Below, piece by piece: positions 4,676 to 28,487 of a stretch of 32,000 nucleotides of DNA. The notes under the pieces were generated by a model, which was given only the letters and a program-made list of their open reading frames with translations, was not told the DNA's origin and searched no databases. This DNA comes from Telmatocola sphagniphila (GTDB taxonomy: Bacteria > Planctomycetota > Planctomycetia > Gemmatales > Gemmataceae): contig NZ_CP074694.1 in the NCBI RefSeq assembly GCF_018398935.1, positions 1,740,001-1,772,000 of the forward strand. The letters are read 5' to 3'. The translations under genes and the position numbers were made by a program. Every line of letters begins with the position of its first letter. Position 1 is the first letter of the stretch.

Positions 4676-5815
4676 ATGTTAGCAACTAAAAAAGTTACGT
4701 TAAATTTGACCGCTTTGGAATCTCGCGCCCTGATGGCAACGAACGTTCTGGGCGTCGCTTCGGGATACAACGGTTTCTTTTTCAATAATTACGATGCGTC
4801 ATATTCCGACGTCCAGGGAAAGCTGGCCGCCGGGGGGAATGTTTCGCTGACGGGTTACTCCGTGGGCGACAAAATCTCCAACGCCGGTCCGGAACTGGTC
4901 GTCGGAGGTAACCTGAACTTTACCAACGGACAAGTGGACGGCGGCGGTGTAACATATGGCGGCACCCTGACCACTAAATGGTTTGGGACGAATGGCGGAA
5001 CCATCAGCCAGAAGTCGGGAGTCGTTGACTTTGCGGCGGCTCAGGCATCATTGACTAGCACTTCGGAAGCCCTCGCGAACAAGCCCTCCAACGGAACCGT
5101 GGTCAATCAGTGGGGTGGACTCATCCTCACTGGAACCAGCACGGGCACCAATTACTTCTCGCTCAATGCCTCCCAGCTATCCAGCTCCTGGGGTATTACG
5201 ATTAATGCACCGGCAGGATCCACGGTTATCGTGAATGTGCACGGAATGTCGGCCAGCATGAAGTTCATGGGCTTCCAACTCCAGGGCGGCGTTACCGCCG
5301 ATCACGTTCTGTTGAATTTCGTCGATGCTCAATCGCTGGTGCTGGACGGAGTAGGAATTCAAGGAAGCATTCTCGCACCCAACGCGAATGTAAAATTTGA
5401 CAACGGCCAGATCAACGGAACGTTGGTAGCCAATTCGATGTGCGGCTACGGCCAGTTGAACTGGGTGCCACCGAATATCGAAGTCTGCGGCTGTCTGTAC
5501 AACCCGACTCAACCTGCCAGCTTATCCGGTAGCATCTCCACATCGATTTGTGGGTGCGGCCAGGTGCATGTTCAGTTGATCAATCAGACCACCGGAGCCG
5601 TCGTTGGAGATGTAATGGTTTCCAAGGGGGGGACTTTCTCGTTCGCTGCCGTACCTCCCGGTGTTTATAAGCTGACGGCTTCCCGGGCACATGGCACCAT
5701 ACACGCCACCGCTGGAAACGCAGGGGGCAATTTGATGGCAGGCGACACGGCGACGATTTATAACATCGATTTGACCAGTGGGGCCAAGGCGACCGGTTAC
5801 AGTTTCGGTGCCTAA
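4676..5815 (+). CDS. Choice-of-anchor-A family protein with a C-terminal Ig-like/carboxypeptidase-regulatory-like domain
   Basis: GGGAGA lies 8 nt upstream of the ATG. YNGFFFNNYDASYSDVQGKLAAGGNVSL and VLLNF...IQGSILAPNANVKFDNGQINGTLVANS match my recollection of the choice-of-anchor-A signature (D.EGrvAvGGn ... GsvlAP.a.v....g.i.G). The C-terminal segment VHVQLINQTTGAVVGDVMVSKGGTFSFAAVPPGVYKL looks like a beta-sandwich. Confidence 0.75.
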   Translation: MLATKKVTLNLTALESRALMATNVLGVASGYNGFFFNNYDASYSDVQGKLAAGGNVSLTGYSVGDKISNAGPELVVGGNLNFTNGQVDGGGVTYGGTLTTKWFGTNGGTISQKSGVVDFAAAQASLTSTSEALANKPSNGTVVNQWGGLILTGTSTGTNYFSLNASQLSSSWGITINAPAGSTVIVNVHGMSASMKFMGFQLQGGVTADHVLLNFVDAQSLVLDGVGIQGSILAPNANVKFDNGQINGTLVANSMCGYGQLNWVPPNIEVCGCLYNPTQPASLSGSISTSICGCGQVHVQLINQTTGAVVGDVMVSKGGTFSFAAVPPGVYKLTASRAHGTIHATAGNAGGNLMAGDTATIYNIDLTSGAKATGYSFGA

Positions 5816-7530: not shown

Positions 7531-9468
7531 ATGGAAAACCCGACCGGTAATAAACCCGAACGCAAGCGTACTTCTTTCACCTTGAACTACGCCCCGATTC
7601 TCGTCATCGCCTTATTCGGTGTGATGCTTTGGTATCAGAGCAAAGAACCGACGATTCAGACGATTCCGTACGGAAAATTCAAACAGCTGATCGGCGCCCC
7701 CGGTATCACGTTCCGCAGCCTGAAAGTGGGCCGCAACGATATTCGCGGGGAGATCATCACCCGCGATAATATTGCCGGCCCCGAGGATGTGGAACCCAAG
7801 AGCGATCAGCCCCATATCACTTCTTTCAAGGTTCTTAGGCTAGGCGTCGAACGGGACGAACAACTCTACCCGCTTCTGGATAAATACGTCGTCGATTATC
7901 AGGCCGAGGAAGAAGACAAACCGATCCAGACCGCACTGAGTACGTTTCTCTGGCTGGCGTTGATGCTGGCGGGAGGCGTGGCGATTTTGTTTCTTTCGAT
8001 GCGATTTTTCGGTGGTTCGCCCTTTTCTTTCGGCCGCAGCCGTCACAAAGTCTTTGCTCAAAAAGACAGTACGAAAATTACGTTCGAAGACGTGGCGGGC
8101 ATTGATGAAGCGAAAGCGGAATTGCGAGAAGTAGTCGATTTTCTCAAGAAACCGGAAAAATATCAGGCTCTGGGAGGCCGCATCCCCAAGGGCGTTCTTT
8201 TGGTCGGCCCACCCGGTACCGGAAAAACGCTGCTCGCGCGTTCAGTGGCGGGTGAAGCGGGCGTCCCCTTTTTCAGCATCAGCGGCAGCGATTTCGTCGA
8301 ACTCTTTGCCGGCGTCGGAGCATCCCGGGTCCGGGATCTGTTCCGGGACGCCGAGTCGAATGCTCCCTGCATCATCTTCATAGACGAACTCGATGCCATG
8401 GGTAAGACTCGCTCCTCGAATTCCATGATGAGCCACGAAGAACGGGAACAGACTCTTAATCAACTCCTGGTGGAAATGGATGGCTTCGACACCAATCGCG
8501 GCGTCATTCTGATGGCGGCCACCAACCGCCCGGAAACGCTCGATGCCGCCTTGCTCCGGCCGGGCCGATTTGATCGTACTGTGGTTGTGGATCGGCCCGA
8601 TATCGACGGCCGGGAAGCCATTCTGAAAGTTCATGCGCGAACGGTGAAACTGGCGCCCGATGTCAATCTTCGCAAGATCGCCGCTCTCACGCCGGGCGCT
8701 GCGGGGGCCGATCTGGCCAATCTGGTAAACGAAGGGGCTCTTCTGGCGGCTAGACGGGGTAAATCGTCCGTGACTATGAGCGAACTGGATGAGGCCGTCG
8801 AACGTGGCGCGGTCGGCTTAGAGCGCCGTAGCCGTGTCATGCGACCGGAAGAGAAAAATCGGGTCGCCGTGCACGAAGCCGGACACGCACTCGTGGCCTG
8901 TGTGGTAGACGGCTGCGATCCCGTTCACAAGGTCTCAATTATTCCCCGAGGGATGGCCGGCGGCTATGTACTTCAACGACCGGATGGGGATCGCACGCTG
9001 ATTACCCGGCATGAACTTGAAGCGCGGATTAAGGTTGCTCTAGGGGGGACCATTGCCGAAGAAATTATCCTCGGTGAAATCTCCACCGGCGCGACTTCCG
9101 ATCTTCAGACTGTCAACGACATCGCACAGCGCATGGTTCGCGAGTTCGGCATGAGCCGACTGGGCCGGGTTTACCACGCCGGGGAACAGAACTCGTTTCT
9201 TCCGGGCTTCATGGAGAAAAGTAACGTCAGCGAGCAGACTTCCCGGGAGATCGATCTGGAAGTTCGCAGCATCATCGAACAATGCGTTAGCACAGTGAGA
9301 GACCTCATCGCCAATAACCAGCCGGCCCTCAACGAGTTGGCGCAATGCCTGATCGATAAAGAGGTTATTGAAGGTCGGGAACTGTATCAGATTCTATCCC
9401 GGGTTGGGGCGCCGCTCACGGAAGCCGCGATGAAGACTCTTCTGGAAAGCAAAGCCGAGATTCCCTGA
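7531..9468 (+). CDS. ftsH: ATP-dependent zinc metalloprotease FtsH (canonical, membrane-anchored)
   Basis: There are two N-terminal hydrophobic helices ([15 protein letters not shown] and [18 protein letters not shown]). Walker A is GPPGTGKT and Walker B is IIFIDELD. The SRH is [20 protein letters not shown], and the M41 zinc site is HEAGHA with a downstream GATSDLQ. Confidence 0.95.
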
Positions 9469-14927: not shown

Positions 14928-17387
14928 TCAGCGCTTCAGCGAATAGAGGAGCGCGGCAGAAGCGATTTTTAAGGCACTGTCGAAATCGTGTCCCATGCAG
15001 GCACTCGACTTGTGTTTTTCCAACGCGCAACCGATGTCATACTTACTGTAAATCACCACCCAGCGGCCGTTGATTTTTATCCCTTCCAGGAATGGCGGCA
15101 TCGTTTCAAATTCGGCATTCGGCGAGCCATCCGGCTTTTCGGTTCGGCAGCGGACCGATTCGATCTTCGCGCCGTTGAGGGATTCGCTGAAGAGGAAATC
15201 TTCCGTGGAAATTCTCTGCAAGCGCTCGTTGGGGAAAACTTTGGCTATGAATTCACGAAAAGCGGTATCGAATTCCTTCTTCCCGCAACACGCATCCGCA
15301 AAGAGTACACCACCGGTGGTGAGAGCGCCGCGAACATTCCGCAATTCCTCATCATCGTAGGTGAATTTCTTTCTTCCGTGCATGTACAGGAAGCGATGGT
15401 CGAAAATCGCGTCGCTGTTCATGCGCACTTCGTCTTTTCGGAGGCTGATATCCAGCTTGGCGGAATCACGCAGATACGCGGCCAGTTGTCGCATGGCTTG
15501 AGGGGCGGGCTGCCAGTCGCCATCGTGCCGCAGTTGACCGATCTGCAGCGAATCGCGGGGAATGACTTTATCGTCCTTCACATCCAGAATCTTCTTGCGC
15601 GTCAAACGAGGTTGCGGAGCTTCCAAACCGGTAGCGTAGGCGATGATGTTACCCGCCAGCTGATAGGCCATGTTGCCTCGTTCTAGGCCGACGGCGTTTT
15701 TGGCTTCCGCGGCATTGGCCGGATCGTATTTGCTTTCTTCCCAATAGCCCGCGAGCGGGGCCGGGCTGAACATTACGATGGTCTTGCAGCCGCGTTCAAT
15801 GCCTTCGAGTGGTGGATCGAAGTAGTTCGGTTTCACGACCTTGTGTGCCGTCCAGACCGGGTGATCGGCCCGCAAAGGCATCAAGGGGCTGTCCGGGTAG
15901 ATCTTGGCCATCAGTTCGTGGAATCCATTGGTGAATTCTTTGGAACCGCAGCAGGCATGGCCGAAAACGAACCCCCCTTCCTCGATGTAGCGTTTTAATA
16001 TTTCGATCTGTTTATCGGTCAATTCCGGCTTTTTGTGCCCTGTGATGTAGAGAATCGGCGATTGCACCAGCGCGGAGAGCTCTTGATCGAAGACTTCTTT
16101 ATCTGGGAGATTGGTTTTCCGGCAATCAAAAGTTTGCCAAGCCAGCGGAATATTTTTGAAAAGTTCCCGACTGGAGTATTCAACGAGGTGCCGCGAATCA
16201 CTGCGTTTGTTGTTCCAGGAGTTTTCATCGCCGTTGCGGGCGTTGAAAGCGAGTTTCGAAATCAAGATGGGCGTGCGGCCCTTGGACAGAAACAACAGTG
16301 CGAAACTCGTACTTAGCACCTTGCTCCCATCGACCCCGCCCGAAGGAGAGCCCCAGGAACCATCGGGTCGCTGGGCGAAATCGACGAACATCGGATTCTG
16401 TCCCACCAGTATCTCGCACCCTTCACGATACCAGTCGTGATCTCCGATGAAGCGCTGACCCGATAACCGGCCCACCCGTTCGAGACCGTAGATGTTGTAG
16501 AAGCTATGCATTCCGGAACGAAAGCTGAAGTGGCCGTTAACGCTCATCCAGCGTAGTCCTCGGGCAATCGCTTCACTTTCGTCGTAGACGCCGCAATTCT
16601 TGGCAATCCCGGTTTTGGGGTCGAAATCCTGTTTGCTGACATCCAGCTGTTCCCCAGCGATGATTAACCCGGAAATCCCGGCCGGGGTCATGGTCTGTCG
16701 ATTATCGTGCCCCTTCTCTCTCGTGTAGTAAGTCCAGAAGCCCTGATCGACTCCTTCTTGGCGCTGAGCCTGTTCGTAAAATTCCTTGATCTCATCCCAG
16801 ACTTTGGGTTCGATGGTGACGCCCGCTTTTTTGGCCGCATAGAGCCCGAGCATGGCGTACTGAGTATTGGAGCCGTCTCCTTGAGACAGGGAATTGTTCC
16901 CGTAGCTCCACCCATCAAGCTTGCCGTTGACACGGACTCGGTAGGCTAAAAGTTTCTTGACATTTTCCTGCATCAGGTCCAGATCCCTGGGATCTTTCAA
17001 TTCCGCCAGGGCCATCGTTTGAAGTGCGATGACATAAGTGGAAGTGCTTCGCAGGGATCGGAGATAATCGACGGAACGCTGGATGACCGGATCTTTCGGG
17101 TCAACCCCGGCGGTGAGCAACGCCAGCATGGTCAGCGTGGTGAAACCTCCCTGAAATGCGAGGGATAACTCATTGTTTTCCCAGTTCCAGGTTTTATTGC
17201 CTCGATCAGACTGGGCTTTTTTGAGAAACAGGATACCGCGATCTATGGCATCGCGGACTTTATCCGCGAGAGGTTCTTCCACTTTTTTGGCTTGTGCGGC
17301 GGCTCGCCCCGCCCCGGTGAGGAGCAAGGTGGTCGTCAGCAGGGCTGCAACGAGTTTTCGACCCGGCATTAATCGGAATTTGAGCAT
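14928..17387 (-). CDS. Secreted fusion protein: prenyltransferase/squalene-oxidase-like alpha-toroid repeats plus two DUF4159-like domains
   Basis: The ORF track start at 17423 is a TTG. I prefer the ATG at 17387 (MLKFRLMPGRKLVAALLTTTLLLTGAGRAAAQA, a signal peptide), which has GGAGG about 11 nt upstream. The N-terminal half has repeats of the type GWSY...SNTQYAMLGL. The C-terminal half has two copies of a [H/D]ACCG[S/K]KEF...F.E[L/F].AK[I/V][Y/F]P module. Confidence 0.75.
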   Translation of the reverse strand: MLKFRLMPGRKLVAALLTTTLLLTGAGRAAAQAKKVEEPLADKVRDAIDRGILFLKKAQSDRGNKTWNWENNELSLAFQGGFTTLTMLALLTAGVDPKDPVIQRSVDYLRSLRSTSTYVIALQTMALAELKDPRDLDLMQENVKKLLAYRVRVNGKLDGWSYGNNSLSQGDGSNTQYAMLGLYAAKKAGVTIEPKVWDEIKEFYEQAQRQEGVDQGFWTYYTREKGHDNRQTMTPAGISGLIIAGEQLDVSKQDFDPKTGIAKNCGVYDESEAIARGLRWMSVNGHFSFRSGMHSFYNIYGLERVGRLSGQRFIGDHDWYREGCEILVGQNPMFVDFAQRPDGSWGSPSGGVDGSKVLSTSFALLFLSKGRTPILISKLAFNARNGDENSWNNKRSDSRHLVEYSSRELFKNIPLAWQTFDCRKTNLPDKEVFDQELSALVQSPILYITGHKKPELTDKQIEILKRYIEEGGFVFGHACCGSKEFTNGFHELMAKIYPDSPLMPLRADHPVWTAHKVVKPNYFDPPLEGIERGCKTIVMFSPAPLAGYWEESKYDPANAAEAKNAVGLERGNMAYQLAGNIIAYATGLEAPQPRLTRKKILDVKDDKVIPRDSLQIGQLRHDGDWQPAPQAMRQLAAYLRDSAKLDISLRKDEVRMNSDAIFDHRFLYMHGRKKFTYDDEELRNVRGALTTGGVLFADACCGKKEFDTAFREFIAKVFPNERLQRISTEDFLFSESLNGAKIESVRCRTEKPDGSPNAEFETMPPFLEGIKINGRWVVIYSKYDIGCALEKHKSSACMGHDFDSALKIASAALLYSLKR

Positions 17388-17543
17388 AATTCCCTGCCTC
17401 CAGCAAAGACTTGGTGTTTCCAACAGGTTCCTTCGTTATTGTCCGCTTCAAATTTGAAACGTACAAACCGATTTCAATTTTTATTATTAAAAAGCAAAAA
17501 TAATCGTTCGCTCGAAACCCCGAGTAACCCTCGACGTATGCTG

Positions 17544-18847: not shown

Positions 18848-19276
18848 CTAATTCTGAGTATGAGCTTTTCGCACGTGATCGGCGGCCAGTTCGACCGGTA
18901 GATGCCAGCCGCAGTCATCGCAGGCCGGCAGTTTTTCGTAACAGTTCTTGCAATAGAGCGGGCCGCCATGCAGAAATTGTTCCAAGCGTTTGCGATCCGT
19001 TTTGGCAATCCCTTCCGATTTCATGGGGAAAGGTTCGTCGCCACCGCACTTCTCGCAGGGGTGGGTGTTATTGTCGGTTATGACCTGCTTGTAGTGGTTG
19101 TGGATTCCGCACGGCACCACCCCAGTGCCGGAACAAAGCGGGCATTCCATTCCGAATTGCGCGACAATCGCTTTTCGAATGAAGTCGCTTTTGTTGGGCA
19201 ACTTATTCAAAAAATCCGCGAGATCCTCTTCGACCTTAAAAGCGACGATCTGAGTCTTATTAGTTTTTCTCGCCAT
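18848..19276 (-). CDS. Ribbon-helix-helix DNA-binding protein fused to a Cys-rich (DnaJ-like CxxCxGxG) zinc-finger domain
   Basis: GGAAGAGGGA lies upstream of the ATG. The N-terminus TQIVAFKVEEDLADFLNKLPNKSDFIRKAIVAQF has a beta-alpha-alpha RHH pattern. It is followed by CPLCSGTG, PCGIH, CEKCGGD, CKNC and CDDC. Confidence 0.7.
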   Translation of the reverse strand: MARKTNKTQIVAFKVEEDLADFLNKLPNKSDFIRKAIVAQFGMECPLCSGTGVVPCGIHNHYKQVITDNNTHPCEKCGGDEPFPMKSEGIAKTDRKRLEQFLHGGPLYCKNCYEKLPACDDCGWHLPVELAADHVRKAHTQN

Positions 19277-19624
19277 CCGCTTGTTCCCTCTTCCTTACTC
19301 CCATTCTACTAATCGAAGCCAATAATCAACGTTTCGAGGACTATTCGAGATGCTCAGAAGTTCGAAAAAATGTCCAACTGCCCAGCCAATTCGAACGCGG
19401 ATTCCTGCCAGTAGATTGCGGACTTTATAACCATCTGTCTTTTCGGGTAAAATACTCTCAAAAACAAAAATTGAGATCGCGCCGAAACTGCCGAATTTGC
19501 ACTGGAAATAGTGAAGCGATTACCCCTGCTTCTAGACAATTTCTCTGCCAGAATAGACTTCGCCCGATGGGCCTATCTATAATTCCGGTGGTAATATTGA
19601 CCCACACAATAGTGAACAGACGGT
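19277..19624. promoter_or_regulatory. Divergent intergenic or leader region between the RHH gene and the six-gene operon
   Basis: This is the largest non-coding gap in the window (348 bp). A perfect TATAAT lies at 19578-19583, with TAGACT 18 nt upstream (19554-19559). TTCGA(G/A) occurs four times at 19333, 19344, 19361 and 19390. CTGCCAG(T/A)A..TAGA occurs at 19405 and 19545. Promoter rules for this lineage are not established, so these assignments are tentative. Confidence 0.4.
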
Positions 19625-20233
19625 ATGTTTCTCAAGACGGCTCAAATTGTCGATTGTACCGAGGCAGAAGGACCTGGTAGGCGTTTCGCGATCTGGACCC
19701 AAGGCTGCCCACTTCATTGTCCCGGATGCTGCAATCCGGAATTTATACCTGAAACTGGCGGCACCCTGCTTTCAATTGAAGAAATTGTGAAGCAGGTGGA
19801 ACTGGCCCACCAGAAACATCGAATCGAAGGGGTCACATTCCTCGGGGGGGAACCTCTGGCCCAACTGGAATCGGTGGCCGCGTTAGCTTCGGAAATTAAG
19901 ATTCGCAATCTCAGCGTTGTAGTTTTCAGCGGCTATACGATCGAAGAGATCCAATCCAGATTGAATCCCGCCGCGCAGCAGCTATTATCGGTTACAGATA
20001 TTTTGATCGATGGTCGTTATCTGAAAGATCAGCCGGATACCAAACGCCGCTGGATTGGCTCTACGAATCAGAGAATCCATTTTTTAACCGATCGCTACAA
20101 GCCGAATGATTCCTATTGGCAGAAATCGAATACACTGGAGATTCGGGTATCTGGCAATGAACTCTCGGTGAATGGTTTCCCCTCAATCGGCGGAAAAGCC
20201 TTATGGAGAAGACCCAAGCCCCTGTCGGAATGA
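19625..20233 (+). CDS. NrdG/PflA-type radical-SAM activating-enzyme-like protein (4Fe-4S single-cluster domain)
   Basis: EGPGRRFAIWTQGCPLHCPGCCNPE carries the CxxxCxxC cluster motif in the NrdG-like context. GVTFLGGEPL is the SAM-binding GGE motif. VVVFSGYTIEEI, DILIDGRY and WIGSTNQRI follow the NrdG family pattern. The protein is 202 aa. Confidence 0.8.
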   Translation: MFLKTAQIVDCTEAEGPGRRFAIWTQGCPLHCPGCCNPEFIPETGGTLLSIEEIVKQVELAHQKHRIEGVTFLGGEPLAQLESVAALASEIKIRNLSVVVFSGYTIEEIQSRLNPAAQQLLSVTDILIDGRYLKDQPDTKRRWIGSTNQRIHFLTDRYKPNDSYWQKSNTLEIRVSGNELSVNGFPSIGGKALWRRPKPLSE

Positions 20234-21333
20234 ATCTGGCCTCTCCGGTCCAAATTGATGCATTTGAAGCAAGACTAATTACGCTGGCTCGACTGCCGTT
20301 CCCGGTAGCCGCCAGCCAGCAATTTCGCAAGTATTTGCAAACCCCTTCCTTCTTACATCGGCGATTCACCTCCGACACCAGCAAATTGTTGAAGGACTCC
20401 TTGCGTAAAGGTTGCGCTTCGTCGCTGGCACGACTGGGCGGCTGGAAAAATGAAAAGGCTTGGAACGAATCGCTCCCGCCCGGACCCGTCTGGAAGCGCA
20501 ATGAGAGGCAGAGTTTAAGTCTGCACTTCTCAAGTCGATTACCGGAAATCCTGGTTCAATTCACAGCCTTGGGAATTGGCCAGTTCGAATCGCAGAAGGC
20601 CATCACGTCGAAGGAGTTGTCTCCCGGGGACCTGCTCTATTTTTTCCTGTTCTATCGCCAGGCGCGGCCGGAAAAGGAAGTCATGGCCGTTCTGCTAAGA
20701 TTACCGTTATTTCAGCAGAATCCGCTCGTTCAGCTTGCCTACCCGACCGACTTTCAGGAGTATCCAGAAGATGTTATCAGTGACTGGGAGCCGTGGATGC
20801 GCGGCCAATACGCCATGATCCTGGATGCGTTGCAAGGCTATTTGAGTGAGGAGTGGCTGAAAGCGGAAAAGGCCAAGAGTAGTATCCACTCCTGGGAGAA
20901 TATGAAAAGGCTGGGTTCGGTGTATGAAAAGTTATTCGATGGATATTTAAAAGCGGTCGAGAGCTCCGGCCGATGGGATCTGGCCCGATTTCTGTTAAGG
21001 ATGCTGAATTCCCTCTTCCAGTACCAATCTCTCTCACTCGAATTCTGGATAGAACAGTTGAAGGATCAAGATATTCCGACAAAACTGTCGGATCGCTTGC
21101 TGGTCCATCGTCAGGCGATAGTAGTCCCGAGAGTTCTAGAGCGAATGCGGCAGTGGACCGAAAGGGCTAGAGCTGTGGCGTTTTTCGAAGAAGATTATTC
21201 GAAAGCGCAGTGGTGGCTGCGAGAATGGGAAGAACATAATGGACCGCGACTGGTAGAATATGTTCGAAGGTTGACCCAGGAGGCGGAACCGCTCCGCCTC
21301 GGGAGTGGTGCAACCCGGGAGAAGCCAGCATGA
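20230..21333 (+). CDS. Hypothetical, predicted all-alpha protein (operon gene B)
   Basis: The ORF is 20203-21333. The ATG at 20230 gives an ATGA overlap with the stop of the radical-SAM gene (MNLASPVQIDAFEARL...). The ATG at 20203 is equally possible. I recognise no catalytic motifs. The C-terminus is W-rich and helical (AQWWLREWEEHNG). Confidence 0.7.
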   Translation: MNLASPVQIDAFEARLITLARLPFPVAASQQFRKYLQTPSFLHRRFTSDTSKLLKDSLRKGCASSLARLGGWKNEKAWNESLPPGPVWKRNERQSLSLHFSSRLPEILVQFTALGIGQFESQKAITSKELSPGDLLYFFLFYRQARPEKEVMAVLLRLPLFQQNPLVQLAYPTDFQEYPEDVISDWEPWMRGQYAMILDALQGYLSEEWLKAEKAKSSIHSWENMKRLGSVYEKLFDGYLKAVESSGRWDLARFLLRMLNSLFQYQSLSLEFWIEQLKDQDIPTKLSDRLLVHRQAIVVPRVLERMRQWTERARAVAFFEEDYSKAQWWLREWEEHNGPRLVEYVRRLTQEAEPLRLGSGATREKPA

Positions 21334-21899
21334 GCAGAGCCTACCGGATCAGTTTGCGAGAGAGCAGTAAACGCGACATTAGCGCATCGGATGAAATTTG
21401 CGCGGAACTCGAACTTCTGGAAATTCTCCCCGCCGAGCAGATGCGAGCGCTTTTGCAGGAAGAACTCCTCCAACGTGGTTTCACCCAGCAAGGAGAAATC
21501 CTCGTTCGGCAGAAACAGGGGTTAAATATTGAAGTGAATCCCAAGACCGGCGAGGTGAAAGTCGGCGCGGTGCACTCCTCCGAGGTCGAAGTGGAATCGG
21601 AACGGGACTGTCTGGGATTCGATGACCTGGGGCCTTCGCAAGAAGAGTTGAAAGCCAGACTTAAAAAAGAGATTGCGGCCGATCTGGAAAATAAGCTCGG
21701 CGAAGAGCAGAAGCGACTGCAGGAATTGACCAGCGAAAAGCTGGAAAAATCGGTTCAGAAAACCTCGGAGGAACTCGACCGGATCGTCAACGCCGTCACT
21801 CGGGCGGCCCTCAAGAAAAAAGCGGCCAGTATGGGCCAGATTCAAGAGATTAGCGAAGATCCCGAAACGGGTTCACTCACCATCAAGCTCGAAGTCTAA
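21330..21899 (+). CDS. Hypothetical protein with an N-terminal alpha/beta region and a C-terminal coiled coil (operon gene C)
   Basis: It has an ATGA overlap with gene B. The heptad-like charged segment is EELKARLKKEIAADLENKLGEEQKRLQELTSEKLEKSVQKTSEELDRI. Beta-hairpin-like strings are LNIEVNPKTGEVKVGAV and EDPETGSLTIKLEV. Confidence 0.7.
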   Translation: MSRAYRISLRESSKRDISASDEICAELELLEILPAEQMRALLQEELLQRGFTQQGEILVRQKQGLNIEVNPKTGEVKVGAVHSSEVEVESERDCLGFDDLGPSQEELKARLKKEIAADLENKLGEEQKRLQELTSEKLEKSVQKTSEELDRIVNAVTRAALKKKAASMGQIQEISEDPETGSLTIKLEV

Positions 21900-21902
21900 C
21901 AC

Positions 21903-23993
21903 ATGTCTTTGATTTCCGAAAAAGAACTCGCCGTCGAGCTGAAAACGGAGCAATCCGTGGAAGCGGCTTACAGCCGCGAACTGGTTCAGGTGACTGCCGA
22001 TCTGCGGCGTGGCCTGCCGACTCTAATCGAGTGCGACAAAGAGCTGGCCCCTTTTGTTTTCCTGCAAATCCGAAACCGGCTCAAGGAGTTTTCCCTGAAA
22101 TGCCAGTATCTGGATGGCCGGCAGCCCGCGACTTCCGAAGGCGGTATGACCGTCGGCTTATTGGCCAGCATACTCAACCAACTTCGCGAGGCGGTTCGCG
22201 GCGCCACCGAGCAGAAGGTCCTTATCCTTCCTCATCTGGATCTGCTGACCACCTCTCAGGGGGGCCTGACCTCCGAAGCTCGCGAAGCCGTGGTGCTGCT
22301 CTACGAAAATCCGAACATTGTCTGTCTGGGATTTAAAGACCCTTCCTTCCCATTACCGCGCGTGATTGAGAATCTTTTCCCCAGACGCGTGAATCTGCTG
22401 GGAATTCCTCGCGATCGCCTGCGCTACCTGATCACGCAAAAGGAGAGCCGCAAGTTCGGCCGGGAGTTAAATCCTTGGGCGCTTTACAAATATGTTTCCG
22501 GTATGAACGCCGTGAGATTGCGACGCGTACTGAGTACCCTGGAAGGCGAAGATTATCCCACCGATCCGCGCAAAGCCTACAGTGAAATCCGCTCTGCTAC
22601 GCTCGCTGGTTCACTGGAGATGCCGGAAGTCGATTTGAATCGCGATATCGGCGGCTATGCCAAGGTGAAAACCCGTTTACAACGAGAAATTCTGGATCTT
22701 TTGCTTCGCCGGGAACGCGCCGAGAGTGAGGAGGCTGCCAGCCGTTTGGAGGAACTAATTCCGCGCGGTCTGATTTTCTGGGGACCGCCCGGCACCGGCA
22801 AAACCTTTTTTGCAAAAGCGATGGCAACCGCCATCGGCGCGGCCATCACCATCGTCTCCGGTCCGGAACTCAAGAGCAAATGGGTCGGGGAATCGGAGGA
22901 GAATCTCAGGTTGATTTTCCACAAAGCCCGCCAGGCTGCTCCATCCATTATCGTCTTCGACGAGCTGGATTCCTTCGCTTCCTCGCGAGGTACCTACTCC
23001 GGCAGCGGCGTGGAACACTCGATGGTCAATCAGCTTTTGACGGAAATGGATGGATTCCACAAGGACGAACTGGTCTTCATCGTCGGGACCACGAACTTTG
23101 TGGAAGCGCTCGACCCGGCCCTGCTGCGCCCCGGCCGCTTTGAGTTCCATCTTCATATCCCCTACCCCGATGCTGAGGATCGCCGGGCAATTCTGAAGAT
23201 TTACGATCAGAAAATGAACCTGCAGTTTACCGAGGCGGCTTTGGAAATGGCCGTTAAGCGAACGGGCGATTTCGTTGAAGGCACGGCGGATGATACTCGG
23301 TTCAGCGGCGACCACATCAACGCCTTGTGTCGATCCATTGCACGAATTAGGCTGCGGGAAAATAAAACTGGCCCGACCGCTGCCAGCGAGATCGAACAGG
23401 CGCTGATGGAATATGTGGATACTCCCAAGCTATCGGCTCAGGAAGAACTCGTGGTGGCCACCCACGAATCGGGCCATGCGGTATGTGCCCTATTCTGCCC
23501 GAACTCCCCGCCCATCGAGCGAATCACGATTCAAAGCGACTCCGCTCGAGCTCTGGGCTACGTTCGCTATCAGGATCGCAATAATCGCTTTGTCGTCACT
23601 CGCAATGAATTACTCGATGACATCTGCGTTCTGCTCGGTGGTCGCGAAGCCGAATCGTTACTGCTGGAGGACCTTTCGATTGGTTCGAGCGATGACTTGA
23701 AGCGAGCCACCAGTTTGGCGCGTTATCTCGTCGAAGAAATCGGCATGGGAGGCGACGAAGTCGGCGTGGTGCGCTACATGGAAGACTTCCGGCAAGGTGC
23801 CACTCGCTGGTCGTCGCTTTCTGAGGAGCAAAAACAGATCCTGGATCGCCGGGTGAAAGAGATACTCAAGGAATCGCTACAGCGGGCGGCGGCGATTCTC
23901 CGCGAAAATCGCGCTCTGCTGTTATCCTTGCGCGACCTGCTTTTGGATAAAAAAGTCATCGATTCGAAAACTCTGCAGGAACTAAAAAAATAA
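21903..23993 (+). CDS. Soluble FtsH-like protease: degenerate N-terminal AAA-like domain + Cdc48-type AAA+ ATPase + M41 zinc peptidase
   Basis: Walker A GPPGTGKT is at 22782-22805 and Walker B IIVFDELD at 22947-22970. SKWVGESEENLRLIF is Cdc48/p97-like. The SRH is [28 protein letters not shown] is at 23463 onward, with a downstream GSSDDLKRAT. There is no hydrophobic helix in the first 290 aa. That region instead shows AAA-like strand/helix spacing without a P-loop (KVLILPHLDLL, VVLLYENPNIVCLGF). Confidence 0.85.
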   Translation: MSLISEKELAVELKTEQSVEAAYSRELVQVTADLRRGLPTLIECDKELAPFVFLQIRNRLKEFSLKCQYLDGRQPATSEGGMTVGLLASILNQLREAVRGATEQKVLILPHLDLLTTSQGGLTSEAREAVVLLYENPNIVCLGFKDPSFPLPRVIENLFPRRVNLLGIPRDRLRYLITQKESRKFGRELNPWALYKYVSGMNAVRLRRVLSTLEGEDYPTDPRKAYSEIRSATLAGSLEMPEVDLNRDIGGYAKVKTRLQREILDLLLRRERAESEEAASRLEELIPRGLIFWGPPGTGKTFFAKAMATAIGAAITIVSGPELKSKWVGESEENLRLIFHKARQAAPSIIVFDELDSFASSRGTYSGSGVEHSMVNQLLTEMDGFHKDELVFIVGTTNFVEALDPALLRPGRFEFHLHIPYPDAEDRRAILKIYDQKMNLQFTEAALEMAVKRTGDFVEGTADDTRFSGDHINALCRSIARIRLRENKTGPTAASEIEQALMEYVDTPKLSAQEELVVATHESGHAVCALFCPNSPPIERITIQSDSARALGYVRYQDRNNRFVVTRNELLDDICVLLGGREAESLLLEDLSIGSSDDLKRATSLARYLVEEIGMGGDEVGVVRYMEDFRQGATRWSSLSEEQKQILDRRVKEILKESLQRAAAILRENRALLLSLRDLLLDKKVIDSKTLQELKK

Positions 23994-24244
23994 TGGCGGA
24001 ATTGACCATAGAACTGCGACGCGATCCGTCTTCTGGAAAGCACGACATCCTGATCCATCTGAAATCGGATGAGGATGCGCTGCCCCACGAGCACGAGCAG
24101 ATGCATCGCGAGATGGTCGAAAAAATAATCGGTAAAGGAAAAGTGGGTAAAGTGATCGTTCAGCGCGAGACCGAAAAAATTTCCGGAGACAATCCGAGTC
24201 ACTCCCAACCTTCCTCTTCGGAACCGCAGGGGCAGACGGGATGA
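23993..24244 (+). CDS. Small 83-aa protein or peptide (operon gene E)
   Basis: Its ATG overlaps the stop of the protease gene by 1 nt (TAATG), and its own stop overlaps the next ATG (ATGA). It contains MAELTIELRRDPSSGKHDILIHL, the His/Glu patch PHEHEQMHRE, and a low-complexity tail SHSQPSSSEPQGQTG. Confidence 0.6.
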   Translation: MAELTIELRRDPSSGKHDILIHLKSDEDALPHEHEQMHREMVEKIIGKGKVGKVIVQRETEKISGDNPSHSQPSSSEPQGQTG

Positions 24245-27200
24245 TTCTCGTTTTTCGCACAGAAGCGATTCTCCGCCAGGCGCTGAAATTGAATCTGCTT
24301 CCCGAAGCGATGCTTCAGGGGCCACTGAAATACCAACGATCTCCCGAGGGAGTGCTCCGGCTGGAGACACTCAAGAAGCATTTCAAAAAGAAATCACTCG
24401 ATCAACTCTACCCGCTCGGCGTTTCAGTCGAAGACGATTTTCCGGCGGAGGAAATACTCACCACATCGCAGATTTGGCTACTGCTGAATCTGGAAGCGGC
24501 TCCTCAGGAGATAGCGCAAGTTGCCGACGGAGCGATTCTGTTTGAATTGGATGTTTTGCACGAAGCCCAGATCGTTCCCGAACTTCTCCGACTCGGTAAC
24601 GACCGCATCGGCTACTTTCCCTCCCGCTTCGAGGGGGAAATCGTGTTCTTTCGAGTGCAATCGCCGCCATTTTATACGCTCTTGCGAACGGTGGAGTCTC
24701 AACCGGGAATCTGTCGATCCTATTATGAAGCTGCTCCGAACTGCTGGGTGCGAGTCGGCTATCGCTTCGAGTTCGCCAAACGGATTCGGATTACCGCGGA
24801 GGAATTGCTTCTGGTGAACCCGGGCCGGGATTATCGCCGGATTCCCAAGGAACCTTTGATTGATGTTTACGAACGTCTGGAGTTCGAAATCTCCGGGGTG
24901 CCGCAGCCGATCCAGATCGAGAAAGTCGCCGAGAAAATCCGCATCCCGCTCCGACTGACCGATGCGGACGCGGAAAGCGACACCTCCTTGTGGGTATTCC
25001 GCGGAAAGGAAATTTCCGCTTTCGAGCAGTGGGTTCAGGGGGAGAACGAAGCGACGCTAGCCCGCTTTCTTTTCGGATTGGGGAAAGCGGAAAGTGATCC
25101 CGTCATCATCGTTCAAGCCCGGCCGACGAAGGATTTCGTTCCGTTGCTTCCGGAGTTTCCCTGCGAGCGTTATCGCACTTATTGGAAGCTTCCCAACCTT
25201 TTTTTGCCCGTCGGAAAGCGCTTGCAGCCGATTCTGCGAAGAGATCGCATTCGGGAATTACTCCTGGGAAATTCCCAGGAATTGGTCTGGTTAAAAGCGC
25301 TGCCCGATAACAATTTTCAGCTCGAATCAATTCACGAATCGTCCTTTTACCCGCTTAACGATTGGGTGGAATATGTGCTCTATCGGGAACGGCAGTCGCT
25401 CACCGAGTGGATGAACAGTTTCACGTTCGATTTCGAGGATTACCGGCTGATTGAGGAGAATTCCAGCAGACCCAAGCCACCCGATCGTGCTCCGGAAGTC
25501 AAAACAGAACAGAAAAAAGCAAGCCCGATTGTTCCGAAAGTAGAGATCGTCCAGAAATTTCTCGCAGAGGAAATCGCACCGGTTGTACCGCAGGAGGAGC
25601 CGGAGAAAAACGCCTTAAAACTGGAGCTGCAACGTTTAGAGAAAGCCTTCCTGACGTTGGAAAGTCCGATCGAATCTGAAGATCGGCAGAGGCTCTGGCC
25701 GCAAATCGCGGAATTGTGTGCGGCTCTGAATGAAGTGCAGGACGCCGGCTTATGCTGGGTCAATGCCGCCTGGCAGCTTCCAGAAATACCTGCCGAGTGG
25801 CTGGGAATGTGGAAGAATGCGGAACACCGCGTCTCTTGGGACCCGGAAGATCGGTGGAAGAATCCACTCCCGGAAAATCCGAGTGCGAGCGAGTTGCGTA
25901 TGCTGGCCGTGGAGGTGCTGGCTGCACTCAGTTCGCCTGTCGTTTCGACCTCGATTTCAGCTCGATTAACGGAGTTGATGAGCTACTTCGAAAAATACGA
26001 TTCTCTCCTGTCTGTACGAACCGCTTGGCTTCTTTGGCAAAAAATGCTCACCGTCGCCGGCAAGGATATTCTGCGGCTGGCCAAAGTGCGGGATCGCCTC
26101 CTGGAGCGGTTGCGAATTTCCGGGCTCAATCTCGAAAAAGACCTGCCGATGTTTCTCCGCTACGGGGAGGACAAGGAAGGTGAACGCCTGCGTGGAGTCC
26201 GTTCGAATCTCGAAACGCTTCGGGACAACGTTCGAAACTGGCACAAGGATACGTTGGCTGTCAACGAGCCATACATTGATCTCGTCTTTGCCTTTGGCAT
26301 GGCCAGATTGGGCCAGGAAACTACCGCGCAGGAGTACGTGCAGAAGGCCAGCCAGAAATTAGCCCATCGGGAGATCGTAAGTAAACCGAAGAGCAAAAAG
26401 GATCTGGTCGGTCCCTTTTTGCTGAAAGCCTTCTCGTACCGAATCGAACAAGCGATTGAACGGAAGCCGACCAATAATCTTTTCCCGGAAGAATTTGTCC
26501 TGGAACTGCTCGCGATTCAGGCTCAGTCCTCAACCGGGAATTCGCTGAGTAGTACCGAGTTCTATTCAATCGAACGATTTTTCGAACTCTCCTGGATACT
26601 ATCTCCCAACGGCGCTCCCGATCCTTATCGCAAGAGCAAAGAGCAGAAGCCACTCCTGTTGGAACTCGACAAGCTATTGGAATTGCGAAATCCGGAACGG
26701 ATGGTCGAACGATTCAAGACGCTTCAGACTGAAGCCAGTCGACAGAAAGACAAGATCTATCGAGAATTGTTGTTATTCGCAAAATCGCTGCCGCTGGCCG
26801 CCGGCATGGGCGAAGAGTTCGCCGTGCGAATCCTCAATCAGGTCCCCAAACTTTGGGACGAGTTGAGAGCAGTGCCGGAAACCCTCGCCAGTGAGTACAA
26901 AATCTACGCCGGGGAAAATGAGATCGCCTTGTTGCAGCAGGCCTTACTTCTGGCCGCCCATTTCAACCAGGTGGCACTGGCTAAAGAATTATTTTTGCGG
27001 CTATCGAATCACCTCAAAAAGTTAAACCCGGCCAATCTCTACACTTCGGCTCAGAAAATTGCTCGGAGTGTGGTGCGCGGTTTGCGAAAGTTGGGATTGC
27101 GCGAGGAACTGAAGAAATTCATCGAACAGGTTTACGCTCAGCTGGTTCCCAAAGGAGACCTCGCCCAGGCCCGGGTGTCCAGTGGAAAGGACTGGCCCGA

Positions 27201-27615
27201 TGCCTTAACGGCTCTGCTGGCCATCGCGGAGGCTTGGGAAGCCATGAATCTTCGCGAACAGGCTCTGCCGATCTTTCAGGAAGCGAGAAACTATTTATTC
27301 GACGAGAAGTCCGCGGCTCAGGCATTGAAATATACACTGGTGGCGCGAAGCTATGTTGCGGCTTTAAGTCAATTGCCCGCTGCGAAAATGTTCGAACGGA
27401 TCGCAGAACTCTTCAGCCGGCTCGCTCCACTCCCGAATACGCAGACGCCGTCTCCTTTTTACTCCCGCCTGCACTTGTTGATTCTGGAGGAGACGATTCG
27501 AACATTGATCGGTGAGAATCAGGCGATCAGCCCCGAAGTAAGACGCTGGCTGGAAGACGATGAATTCCTGGTTCGCCAGAGAATTCATCGAGATATGCAA
27601 AAAGCCCTTCAATAG
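24241..27615 (+). CDS. 1124-aa protein: ~400-aa N-terminal alpha/beta region, Pro/Lys/Glu-rich linker, ~650-aa helical-repeat (TPR/HEAT-like) region (operon gene F)
   Basis: This is a long uninterrupted ORF with an ATGA-coupled start. The linker is SSRPKPPDRAPEVKTEQKKASPIVPKVEIVQKFLAEEIAPVVPQEEPEKN. The C-terminal two-thirds is dominated by amphipathic helices. I recognise no enzymatic motif. Confidence 0.85.
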   Translation: MILVFRTEAILRQALKLNLLPEAMLQGPLKYQRSPEGVLRLETLKKHFKKKSLDQLYPLGVSVEDDFPAEEILTTSQIWLLLNLEAAPQEIAQVADGAILFELDVLHEAQIVPELLRLGNDRIGYFPSRFEGEIVFFRVQSPPFYTLLRTVESQPGICRSYYEAAPNCWVRVGYRFEFAKRIRITAEELLLVNPGRDYRRIPKEPLIDVYERLEFEISGVPQPIQIEKVAEKIRIPLRLTDADAESDTSLWVFRGKEISAFEQWVQGENEATLARFLFGLGKAESDPVIIVQARPTKDFVPLLPEFPCERYRTYWKLPNLFLPVGKRLQPILRRDRIRELLLGNSQELVWLKALPDNNFQLESIHESSFYPLNDWVEYVLYRERQSLTEWMNSFTFDFEDYRLIEENSSRPKPPDRAPEVKTEQKKASPIVPKVEIVQKFLAEEIAPVVPQEEPEKNALKLELQRLEKAFLTLESPIESEDRQRLWPQIAELCAALNEVQDAGLCWVNAAWQLPEIPAEWLGMWKNAEHRVSWDPEDRWKNPLPENPSASELRMLAVEVLAALSSPVVSTSISARLTELMSYFEKYDSLLSVRTAWLLWQKMLTVAGKDILRLAKVRDRLLERLRISGLNLEKDLPMFLRYGEDKEGERLRGVRSNLETLRDNVRNWHKDTLAVNEPYIDLVFAFGMARLGQETTAQEYVQKASQKLAHREIVSKPKSKKDLVGPFLLKAFSYRIEQAIERKPTNNLFPEEFVLELLAIQAQSSTGNSLSSTEFYSIERFFELSWILSPNGAPDPYRKSKEQKPLLLELDKLLELRNPERMVERFKTLQTEASRQKDKIYRELLLFAKSLPLAAGMGEEFAVRILNQVPKLWDELRAVPETLASEYKIYAGENEIALLQQALLLAAHFNQVALAKELFLRLSNHLKKLNPANLYTSAQKIARSVVRGLRKLGLREELKKFIEQVYAQLVPKGDLAQARVSSGKDWPDALTALLAIAEAWEAMNLREQALPIFQEARNYLFDEKSAAQALKYTLVARSYVAALSQLPAAKMFERIAELFSRLAPLPNTQTPSPFYSRLHLLILEETIRTLIGENQAISPEVRRWLEDDEFLVRQRIHRDMQKALQ

Positions 27616-27617
27616 CA

Positions 27618-28487
27618 TCAGGGGCCGGCGGGCGGATTTTCGACCGGGGGAGCTACCGGCGCAATAGGTTGTGGTGCAACTGGTACCCCGTTCATAACCC
27701 CCGCCGCCGCGGCGATGCCGGGTTGACCGTCGTTGCGATTTTCCGGAATCATGGGGATTTGCGGAACCAACGTGTCGCCGTCGCGCAGTTTATCAGCCCG
27801 CTCCTCGGAAGTGATGTAGATCACGCCGCCGATGCGAACCGGTTTCAAGCCGGCCATTTCCGTGGCTAGTCGCAGGATGGTTTCCAGGGTGGCTTCTTCG
27901 AGTTCGAGCGTAATGGGAGTTTCGCTCGCTTTCGATTTCCTAGCCTTCAAATCGAGTACCATGTTCACGGAATATTTGGAACTGAGGGTTTTGATCAGAT
28001 CGGATAAAGGAGTCTCTTTGCAGGAAATTGGAATGTATTGTCGCATCTGGCGAGCGGCCAAGCCCTCTTCCGAACTGACCCAGATGGTATCGCCCACCAC
28101 CCCGAAGCTCAATTGATAAGCCAGCGTCAATTTTCGCAAGGCCTTACGCAAGGGCATGCCATCGGTTTCCAGGGATACAGTCAAACCTTCCATATCGCCG
28201 GGCTGTTGGGAAAGAAACGCCGTATCGAATTTGATTTTCGCGCCTGTCTGCTGCGAGAGATCGCTCAGAACCGCTTTCAATTCCATCTCGAGAAAAGAGC
28301 ATTTCACATTCTCCGAAAGTAACTTTTGCAGTTCTTCCGGAGTCTTTTCCTTCACTTTTGGGGCGGCAATCTTTGACTTGGCGGAATTTTTCTCCGGCGG
28401 CGGATAGCTGCCCTGAACGGGAGTCAGCGACACCATCCCCAGTATGGCCAGAACCAGAACTAGAGGGCGAAGAATCGGAATTCGCAT
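27618..28487 (-). CDS. Secreted protein with two tandem STN/secretin-N-like small domains and a Pro-rich C-terminal tail
   Basis: The signal peptide is MRIPILRPLVLVLAILGMVSLTPVQG. There is an internal duplication: LKAVLSDLSQQTGAKIKFD...LTVSLETDGMPLRKALRKLTLAYQLSFGVVGDTIWVSSEE versus LSDLIKTLSSKYSVNMVLD...ITLELEEATLETILRLATEMAGLKPVRIGGVIYITSEE. The tail is PVAPQPIAPVAPPVENPPAGP. Confidence 0.7.
   Translation of the reverse strand: MRIPILRPLVLVLAILGMVSLTPVQGSYPPPEKNSAKSKIAAPKVKEKTPEELQKLLSENVKCSFLEMELKAVLSDLSQQTGAKIKFDTAFLSQQPGDMEGLTVSLETDGMPLRKALRKLTLAYQLSFGVVGDTIWVSSEEGLAARQMRQYIPISCKETPLSDLIKTLSSKYSVNMVLDLKARKSKASETPITLELEEATLETILRLATEMAGLKPVRIGGVIYITSEERADKLRDGDTLVPQIPMIPENRNDGQPGIAAAAGVMNGVPVAPQPIAPVAPPVENPPAGP

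Follow-up and report, generated by a model that had tools for sequence, protein, structure and literature searches.

Six clustered genes of the planctomycete Telmatocola sphagniphila probably form a trimmed core of the 'simple' FtsH ternary system

The stretch of DNA analysed here, called the window below, covers 32,000 nucleotides of the genome of Telmatocola sphagniphila, a member of the Gemmataceae (contig NZ_CP074694.1, positions 1,740,001 to 1,772,000; position 1 is its first letter). It contains six closely packed genes on one strand, named A to F. They encode a radical S-adenosylmethionine (radical-SAM) enzyme (A), proteins of the families fvmX6 (B) and fvmX5 (C), an FtsH-like protein (D), an fvmX3-analog (E), and an fvmX7 protein (F). 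We read this operon as the six-gene 5' core of a 'simple' FtsH ternary system in trimmed form. The probability of this reading, together with the working model given below, is put at about 80%. The evidence that carries it is the family membership of the accessory proteins and the recurrence of the same gene order in related genomes.

The FtsH ternary system was defined computationally by Kaur, Burroughs, Iyer, and Aravind (2020, eLife 9:e52696; PMC7159879). Its parts are MoxR, a divergent vWA protein, and an FtsH whose N-terminal AAA+ domain is inactive (PMC7159879). It is predicted to be an NTP-dependent system of biological conflict, be it anti-invader immunity or programmed death, in bacteria with a multicellular habit among planctomycetes, actinobacteria, and deltaproteobacteria, and is one of several elaborate conflict systems that are purely predicted (PMC7159879 for the prediction and the habit). 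The 'simple' subtype includes a radical-SAM enzyme that is predicted to modify a stand-alone peptide, the 'peptide-effector'; sister subtypes bear caspase, TIR, and Ubl effectors (PMC7159879). The initial annotation of this DNA had not recognised the radical-SAM linkage from any characterised system. However, since a radical-SAM enzyme and a stand-alone peptide are both part of the description by Kaur et al. 2020, the linkage is not new; it has already been described, though computationally only. The same annotation had proposed an NTP-dependent conflict module, which agrees with the published interpretation of these families (PMC7159879), itself a prediction. In the literature, we found no experimental work on any member of the system and no paper beyond Kaur et al. 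2020, the supplement of which contains no Gemmataceae or FtsH entries. T. sphagniphila builds rosettes and dendriform structures or aggregates (PMC3327967), and this habit fits the published link of the system to multicellularity.

Families were assigned with Pfam at gathering cutoffs, NCBIfam at equivalog cutoffs, and PADLOC-DB v2.0.0. B matches fvmX6 (PF20004, 1.9e-59, residues 9-348) at 201.9 bits against a gathering score of 27. C matches fvmX5 over its full length (PF20003, 1.9e-56; 191.3 bits against 24.2), E the fvmX3-analog family (PF20002, 1.4e-25; 89.6 bits against 27), and F fvmX7 over residues 136-380 (PF20005, 9.8e-42; 143.9 bits against 24). UniRef names F (QVL33676.1, KIH39_07140) an 'FtsH ternary system domain-containing protein'. 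That B, C, E, and F might be fvmX proteins had been raised in the initial annotation; all four are, with scores far above the gathering values. No model in PADLOC-DB v2.0.0 specific to the system was matched. D matches generic AAA models there (IetA, TRIP13), and the pVip and cyclase matches to A and C are marginal.

An alignment-based profile scan with the F family detected relatives in 278 species-level genomes, of which the best 80 were fetched. A scan of genome contigs with F alone as a single-protein query detected no relatives. Synteny was counted over 39 Gemmatales loci with at least 6.5 kb of upstream sequence; 25 loci are complete on both sides. The genes for fvmX6, fvmX5, FtsH, the fvmX3-analog, and fvmX7 follow one another in this order and on one strand in 35 of the 39 loci, and the arrangement is therefore not due to chance. 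The initial annotation had made its proposal depend on synteny of the genes in other genomes, and this recurrence is what was found. In 31 of the 35 core loci, the gene just before fvmX6 encodes the radical-SAM enzyme. E is directly downstream of D throughout the core loci, and this adjacency is the most constant feature of the system. The same gene order is present in Tuwongella, in Thalassoroseus (where the core is accompanied by MoxR), and in metagenomic planctomycetes. Scores and synteny together exclude spurious fvmX matches.

The longest versions (L085, L090/L091) begin with the radical-SAM gene, in some cases followed by an open reading frame (ORF), and run through fvmX6, fvmX5, FtsH, the fvmX3-analog, and fvmX7 to bpMoxR and then to ivWA-helical_N plus ivWA. 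L085 and L091 are complete eight-gene versions, with bpMoxR and the helical-N/vWA gene directly after fvmX7. PF19996 and PF19997 correspond to the vWA component of the paper through their JGI names ('vWA domain found in the FtsH ternary systems'), and ivWA is encoded in cis in L002, L085, and L091. L086, L087, and L089 are partial or split systems. Among split and orphan loci, fvmX7 may stand alone (L007 of Zavarzinella formosa, L052, L073), the fvmX3-analog and fvmX7, with or without MoxR, may occur without FtsH, fvmX5, and fvmX6 (L019, L087), and FtsH with the fvmX3-analog may lack fvmX5, fvmX6, and the radical-SAM gene upstream (L089, from Pirellulaceae).

The pair that gives the system its name is missing from the window. 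Neither MoxR nor vWA was detected in the 32 kb, by Pfam on the long ORFs or by tblastn (for MoxR, with two queries), and the initial annotation had not noticed this absence. Related genomes often share it. Of the 25 fully sampled Gemmatales loci, 6 consist of the core only, like the window, 13 add just a second fvmX7, and 6 carry bpMoxR after fvmX7; none (0/25) has a vWA gene in cis. The MoxR-vWA 'switch' is thus usually not encoded with the core in Gemmatales. A metagenome-assembled genome (MAG) from the Gemmataceae has an ivWA gene standing alone among unrelated genes, so split arrangements exist in this family. For Telmatocola, the pair is either encoded elsewhere or dispensable.

Other neighbours vary from locus to locus. 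A second full-length fvmX7 paralogue follows in tandem in 30 related loci (for example L008 10001-16983 and L003 10001-18048); the window has one copy. The tandem paralogues are old, because they are just 25-41% identical, and an ORF of 290-337 residues of no assigned family sometimes lies between them. A gene for RtcA (RNA 3'-phosphate cyclase) lies directly upstream of the radical-SAM gene, on the same strand and with gaps of about 30-125 nt, in 25 of the 35 core loci. Examples are L005 (2331-3374), L013, and L020, with 22 other Gemmatales loci; the gene is absent from the window, and it was not found upstream of the radical-SAM gene in the non-Gemmatales loci L085, L088, and L091. The linkage could be lineage-specific synteny, or it could hint that the radical-SAM module touches RNA. 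When the 1,707 unassigned ORFs of 84 loci were clustered, no recurrent neighbour was found beyond the second fvmX7, MoxR, and RtcA, and the accessory ORFs of related loci matched no Pfam family. A different radical-SAM family (247-249 residues), usually with two unknown ORFs, occupies the MoxR end of divergent loci (L002 14631-16776; L086 18392-20424, minus strand; L087 14959-15702), and the radical-SAM enzyme meant by the 2020 paper could belong to either of the two families. Several MAGs (L014, L017, L031, L038, L064, L056) carry the planctomycete-type operon under the label 'Alcaligenaceae' or 'Bacteroidales', which probably reflects an error in binning or labelling.

Table 1. Positions in the window of the six genes, of the domains of D and F, and of two upstream features.
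Feature	Position	Strand	Description
Gene A	19625-20233	+	202 aa, NrdG/PflA-type radical-SAM enzyme
Gene B	20230-21333	+	367 aa, fvmX6
Gene C	21330-21899	+	189 aa, fvmX5
Gene D	21903-23993	+	696 aa, AAA+/M41 protein without transmembrane segment
D residues 1-235	21903-22607	+	putative degenerate AAA+-like N-terminal domain
D residues 236-505	22608-23417	+	active classical AAA+ module
D residues 506-696	23418-23993	+	M41 zinc-metallopeptidase domain
Gene E	23993-24244	+	83 aa, fvmX3-analog
Gene F	24241-27615	+	1124 aa, fvmX7
F residues 1-393	24241-25419	+	beta-rich alpha/beta N-terminal module (fvmX7 domain)
F residues 456-1124	25606-27615	+	all-alpha TPR/HEAT-like solenoid
Candidate sigma-70-like promoter	19554-19583	+	TAGACT-N18-TATAAT, 10/12 matches, about 40 nt upstream of A
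Divergent ribbon-helix-helix (RHH) + Cys-rich (Zn-ribbon-like) putative regulator	18848-19276	-	142 aa; family matches weak, below cutoffs

The layout of the operon is as the initial annotation had it, with six ORFs on one strand (Table 1). From A to F the junctions measure -4 (ATGA), -4 (ATGA), +3, -1 (TAATG), and -4 (ATGA) nt. A 348-bp gap (19277-19624), the largest internal gap between long ORFs, precedes A; at the other end, just 2 nt separate the stop of F (27615) from that of a convergent gene (27618-28487, minus strand). The start of B at 20230 was based on the ATGA overlap, which exists, but a start at 20203 is also possible: the latter is the Logan gene call (376 residues, 31-nt overlap with A), the former gives 367 residues. 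In the short form, some 6-9 residues precede the conserved fvmX6 region. The junctions are also as tight as described; the conclusion drawn from them, that no room is left for internal promoters, is an inference, since promoters can lie inside coding sequence. The candidate sigma-70-like site in Table 1, which lies in the 348-bp gap, is the top-scoring one in the scanned region, by consensus match alone. Promoter-like sites in the operon region occur at about chance frequency (8 observed against 4.8 +/- 2.3 expected).

A is an NrdG/PflA-type radical-SAM protein (Pfam Fer4_12, 1.4e-34; Radical_SAM, 8.7e-13). The catalytic motifs reported earlier are present, namely the CxxxCxxC cluster in A (C28-x3-C32-x2-C35) and Walker A/B with HExxH in D. 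The best NCBIfam match of A is the NrdG equivalog TIGR02491 (9.9e-30), at 103.5 bits below the cutoff of 126.1, and its PFLA score is likewise below cutoff (65.3 against 231.75). Its sole relatives in the Protein Data Bank (PDB) are structures of the pyruvate formate-lyase activating enzyme (PFL-AE; 3c8f/3cb8, E 1.2e-9). The alignment to PFL-AE places EGPGRRF..QGCPLHCPGCCN opposite DGPGIRF..QGCLMRCLYCHN and spans the cluster motif and (D/E)GPGxR. In PFL-AE, the (D/E)GPGxR motif contacts the glycine loop of the substrate. The CxxxCxxC and (D/E)GPGxR-type motifs are invariant in 31 orthologues of A, and the median identity of A across Gemmatales is 54%. No SPASM or RRE domain was detected in A by Pfam or NCBIfam.

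As the initial annotation had noted for this operon, no glycyl-radical partner is evident: no glycyl-radical enzyme (NrdD, PFL, or the like) was found in the window or in related loci, and no conserved RVxG[FWY]-type glycyl-radical site was found in B to F. An RLGGW sequence in B (1 match, 0.045 expected) was considered as such a site and rejected, as conservation is limited to G[GA]W. T. sphagniphila is an obligate aerobe and cannot grow under micro-oxic or anoxic conditions (PMC3327967), and A is therefore unlikely to serve an anaerobic ribonucleotide reductase.

D combines three parts. Its AAA+ module (residues 236-505; Pfam AAA, 1.1e-40) has Walker A GPPGTGKT, Walker B DELD, the arginine finger, and a pore loop (KWVGESE) of the Cdc48/VAT type. 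The best PDB sequence matches of this module are VAT and p97 D2 (E 2.5e-91) rather than FtsH. The M41 domain (residues 506-696; Pfam Peptidase_M41, 1.5e-38) has HESGH and an intact downstream Asp (SDDL); HExGH and this Asp are conserved across 40 homologues. Residues 236-696 form a complete AAA+ plus M41 unit that is 31% identical to the canonical FtsH of the window (7531-9468) over 450 residues. FtsH structures align to D over residues 278-692, and the top Foldseek matches are FtsH, AFG3L2, and YME1, at E 5e-26. Against the NCBIfam FtsH model TIGR01241, D scores 288.4, far short of the cutoff of 600. Across families, the identity of D is 62-72%, and more than 2,455 clusters fall at E <= 1e-100.

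The initial annotation described D as an FtsH without a transmembrane segment. No such segment was detected by hydropathy scan, and the canonical FtsH of the window has two; missing from that description were an additional degenerate AAA+-like N-terminal domain and the Cdc48/VAT type of the AAA+ module. Residues 1-235 are as conserved as the active module. They have no P-loop (ECDKELAPF is in its place), and PHLDLL replaces Walker B. In the AlphaFold2 (AF2) model of D (pLDDT 73 overall, about 70-90 where the N-terminal domain was called), this region shows the same order of beta-alpha elements as the active module, with a helical lid. Foldseek aligned p97 (D1-D2) to D over 574 columns, and no other match listed had a higher query TM-score. 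A profile search with residues 1-235 gave no sequence-level match in the PDB. When the N-terminal domain was compared with the AAA+ module of D itself by hhalign, VLILPHLDLL paired with IIVFDELDSF and KDPSFPLPRVIE paired weakly with a segment of the active module; in this alignment, which is not significant (E 0.36), DPSFPLPRVIE stands opposite the arginine-finger segment. We assign this domain with moderate confidence as a probable inactive AAA+ domain, as in Kaur et al. 2020. D thus looks like a p97-style tandem AAA+ protein fused to an M41 peptidase.

F was initially annotated as a helical-repeat giant. The solenoid is there; a beta-rich N-terminal module of about 390 residues is there too. 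The AF2 model has a pLDDT of 83 overall and mostly 80-92 in the N-terminal module, with a disordered linker at residues 394-452. Foldseek returned weak matches to TPR/HEAT-like solenoids, the best at E 9e-3. About 125 full-length homologues are 27-35% identical. Mean column identity is 0.65-0.68 over residues 101-393 and lowest (0.49) in the mid-solenoid. The most conserved motifs of the family, E[MIL]LRLGNDR, PPYY[TS]LLRA, and KLPNLFLPVG, are in the N-terminal module, and the C-terminal 34 residues are also highly conserved (RRWLD[DE]DE..). A cryptic vWA domain in F was considered and rejected: Pfam assigns fvmX7 alone, the AF2 model shows a beta-rich module plus solenoid, and Foldseek returned no vWA.

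Of the smaller accessory proteins, B is fast-evolving (median family identity 30%), with no known fold assignment and with a G[GA]W turn (residues 70-72) that is conserved. C has a median identity of 48% and no relative in the PDB. E likewise has no PDB relative. Its first 60 residues are about 60-80% identical within the family (alignment of 59 orthologues), with G15, D28, P31, E33-H34-E35, H38, G52, and R58 invariant, and they are followed by a variable, P/Q/E-rich tail of about 25 residues. The invariant EHExxH (E33, H34, E35, H38) places a zincin-like HExxH within the 60-residue domain and suggests that E may bind a metal. The 191 representative clusters of E are nearly all stand-alone proteins of 50-125 residues, and no informative fusion partner was found among them. 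E is a candidate for the 'peptide-effector' or for the substrate of the radical-SAM enzyme.

From these features a working model can be put together. D would act as a soluble hexameric unfoldase-protease, and its degenerate N-terminal ring, with C and B, would provide a docking and regulatory layer. F may be a large sensor or scaffold with a solenoid of the peptide-binding type that couples a trigger to the machine. A would be an enzyme of the glycyl-radical-activase type, built to receive a protein loop, that abstracts a backbone or side-chain hydrogen from a protein of the system; E is the best candidate target. Unfolding or processing of E by D could then release or destroy an effector or signal. 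MoxR-vWA, where present, may set the threshold for assembly, as in the gating of assembly proposed by Kaur et al. 2020 (PMC7159879). The split in conservation, with D at 62-72% identity and the E domain very conserved against about 30% for F and B, supports the view that a constant engine may be combined with variable sensors.

Several points weigh against this reading. Because the locus lacks the defining MoxR-vWA pair, it cannot demonstrate the 'ternary' logic. The 60-residue conserved domain of E looks like a folded protein and not like a typical modified peptide. The call of an AAA+ fold in the N-terminal domain of D comes from a predicted model and an indirect Foldseek result, and the profile-profile comparison is not significant. 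Among B to F, a sequence signature that might mark the substrate of A was not found. The immune role is drawn from comparative genomics only. The operon lies among housekeeping genes with native GC content, and D and E are unusually conserved for conflict genes. The system is known from sequence only, and PADLOC has no model of it.

The serious alternative is that these genes form a lineage-wide, vertically inherited regulated-proteolysis or quality-control machine of planctomycetes. B, C, E, and F would be adaptors and A a radical-SAM maturase, and the machine would serve normal physiology (development, stalk or rosette formation, stress) and not immunity. We consider this unlikely, though it accounts for a good part of the data. 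Identities of 65-72% for D across Gemmatales, Planctomycetales, and Pirellulales, the nearly invariant first 60 residues of E, the GC content equal to that of the flanks, the housekeeping neighbours without marks of mobile elements, the lack of a PADLOC model, and the frequent absence of MoxR-vWA in cis would all be expected of such a machine. However, the families were defined in MoxR-vWA ternary systems, the sister subtypes of which carry caspase, TIR, or Ubl effectors. The sequences of F and B diverge quickly (about 30% identity), and duplication of F into old paralogues has happened repeatedly, as is typical of sensors under diversifying pressure. The gene content is labile, as the radical-SAM gene, MoxR, ivWA, the second fvmX7, and RtcA vary and loci are split, and the distribution over the 278 species-level genomes found by the pattern scan is patchy.

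In a bolder version, the six-gene core would be an autonomous machine independent of MoxR-vWA and would use new chemistry, a proteolytic switch triggered by the radical-SAM enzyme. Such a switch would have no characterised precedent in immunity or regulation, and we regard it as rather doubtful. Within it, A, as an enzyme of the glycyl-radical-activase type in an obligate aerobe, might make a one-off backbone modification, or install an oxygen-labile radical that cleaves E or another protein of the system, and D would then unfold or process that protein.

The initial annotation had offered a cluster for a ribosomally synthesised and post-translationally modified peptide (RiPP) as an alternative. 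In such a cluster, E would be the precursor, A would modify it, and the M41 domain of D would remove the leader to yield a natural product that is secreted or stays in the cell. E does pair a conserved N-terminal part with a hypervariable tail of about 25 residues, its operon also encodes a radical-SAM enzyme and a protease, and Kaur et al. 2020 speak of a modified 'peptide-effector'. Most details do not fit, and the proposal is poorly supported and very improbable. A is a 202-residue NrdG/PflA-type enzyme without SPASM or RRE, and among the genes conserved with the operon none encodes an exporter or an immunity protein. The folded-looking 60-residue domain of E, with its EHExxH, is unlike a leader, and the tail is of low complexity and lacks a Cys/Trp/Lys cross-link pattern. 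B and F (about 1,500 residues) would have no role in such a pathway, and D is an ATP-driven unfoldase and not a leader peptidase. Finally, that A is an ordinary NrdG lying by chance beside an unrelated five-gene unit, as its best NCBIfam match might suggest, is effectively refuted by synteny, since 31 of 35 loci, and loci of distant orders as well, have an A-type enzyme ahead of fvmX6, and in addition its score is below the NrdG cutoff, A overlaps B through ATGA, the window has no NrdD or other glycyl-radical enzyme, and the host is an obligate aerobe.

The surroundings of the operon are unremarkable. Flanking genes are housekeeping genes, and the operon has the same GC content (0.532) as its flanks. 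A search for tRNAs, Rfam elements, and bounding repeats found none, and a hydropathy scan gave no convincing transmembrane segment in A to F. A mobile island was rejected on the absence of such elements and on the native GC content, in line with the earlier caveat that the operon is not an obvious one. The divergent RHH/zinc-finger regulator described earlier does exist upstream, but it is not conserved with the system: no homologue was found in about 90 related loci, and it was rejected as a component and is taken as a Telmatocola-specific neighbour. On the left flank, an 831-residue DUF4159 protein (14928-17423, minus strand) and a 379-residue pAdhesive_15 (ice-binding-like adhesin) protein (4676-5815, plus strand) seem to have nothing to do with the operon. 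Beyond the window, a few genes and about 9.5 kb downstream of F, the Telmatocola contig encodes a glycosyltransferase with a PF20706 'GT4-conflict' domain (L084 22913-23375).

The operon in the window is a further copy of a catalogued system, trimmed in a way often seen in Gemmatales. The survey of loci defines the conserved unit as the radical-SAM enzyme, fvmX6, fvmX5, FtsH, the fvmX3-analog, and fvmX7, in which the pair of FtsH and peptide is both the most constant and the most conserved. For biochemical reconstitution, these six genes of a cultured organism make a compact construct, and the presence of a glycyl-radical-type activase in an obligate aerobe raises the question of its role. Should the immune reading be wrong, the operon would be a widespread, unstudied proteolysis machine of planctomycetes.

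The closest known system is the 'simple' FtsH ternary system, with the same four accessory families; its complete loci L085 and L091 have the same gene order as the operon. The likeness extends to an FtsH-type protein with a putative degenerate N-terminal AAA+-like domain, a radical-SAM enzyme, a stand-alone small protein, and a rosette-forming planctomycete host. In contrast to a complete system, the window has no MoxR and no helical-N/vWA gene within 32 kb, and it lacks NEFF1, a second fvmX7, and an RtcA neighbour. With canonical FtsH and with AFG3L2/YME1, D shares an AAA+ module followed by an M41 HExxH peptidase; unlike canonical FtsH, it has no membrane anchor or periplasmic domain, has an extra N-terminal domain, and carries a pore loop of the Cdc48/VAT/p97-D2 type. 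A resembles PflA and NrdG in its N-terminal CxxxCxxC, (D/E)GPGxR, the GGEP SAM motif, and its small size, and differs in having no glycyl-radical partner, in its sub-cutoff scores, in its place in a protease/scaffold operon, and in its obligately aerobic host. Radical-SAM RiPP clusters (sactipeptides, streptide, epipeptides) likewise bring together a small product, a radical-SAM enzyme, and a peptidase. In the operon, however, the radical-SAM enzyme is without SPASM or RRE, a transporter is missing, most of the 'peptide' is a conserved 60-residue domain, and two large non-enzymatic partners are obligatory. The proposed logic, in which an AAA+ machine gates an effector and a large variable protein acts as sensor, is also that of the VMAP and iSTAND MoxR-vWA ternary systems and of CBASS regulated by TRIP13-HORMA. 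Compared with these, the operon has no recognisable effector domain (caspase, TIR, nuclease, or pore-former), and its AAA+ protein is itself a protease.

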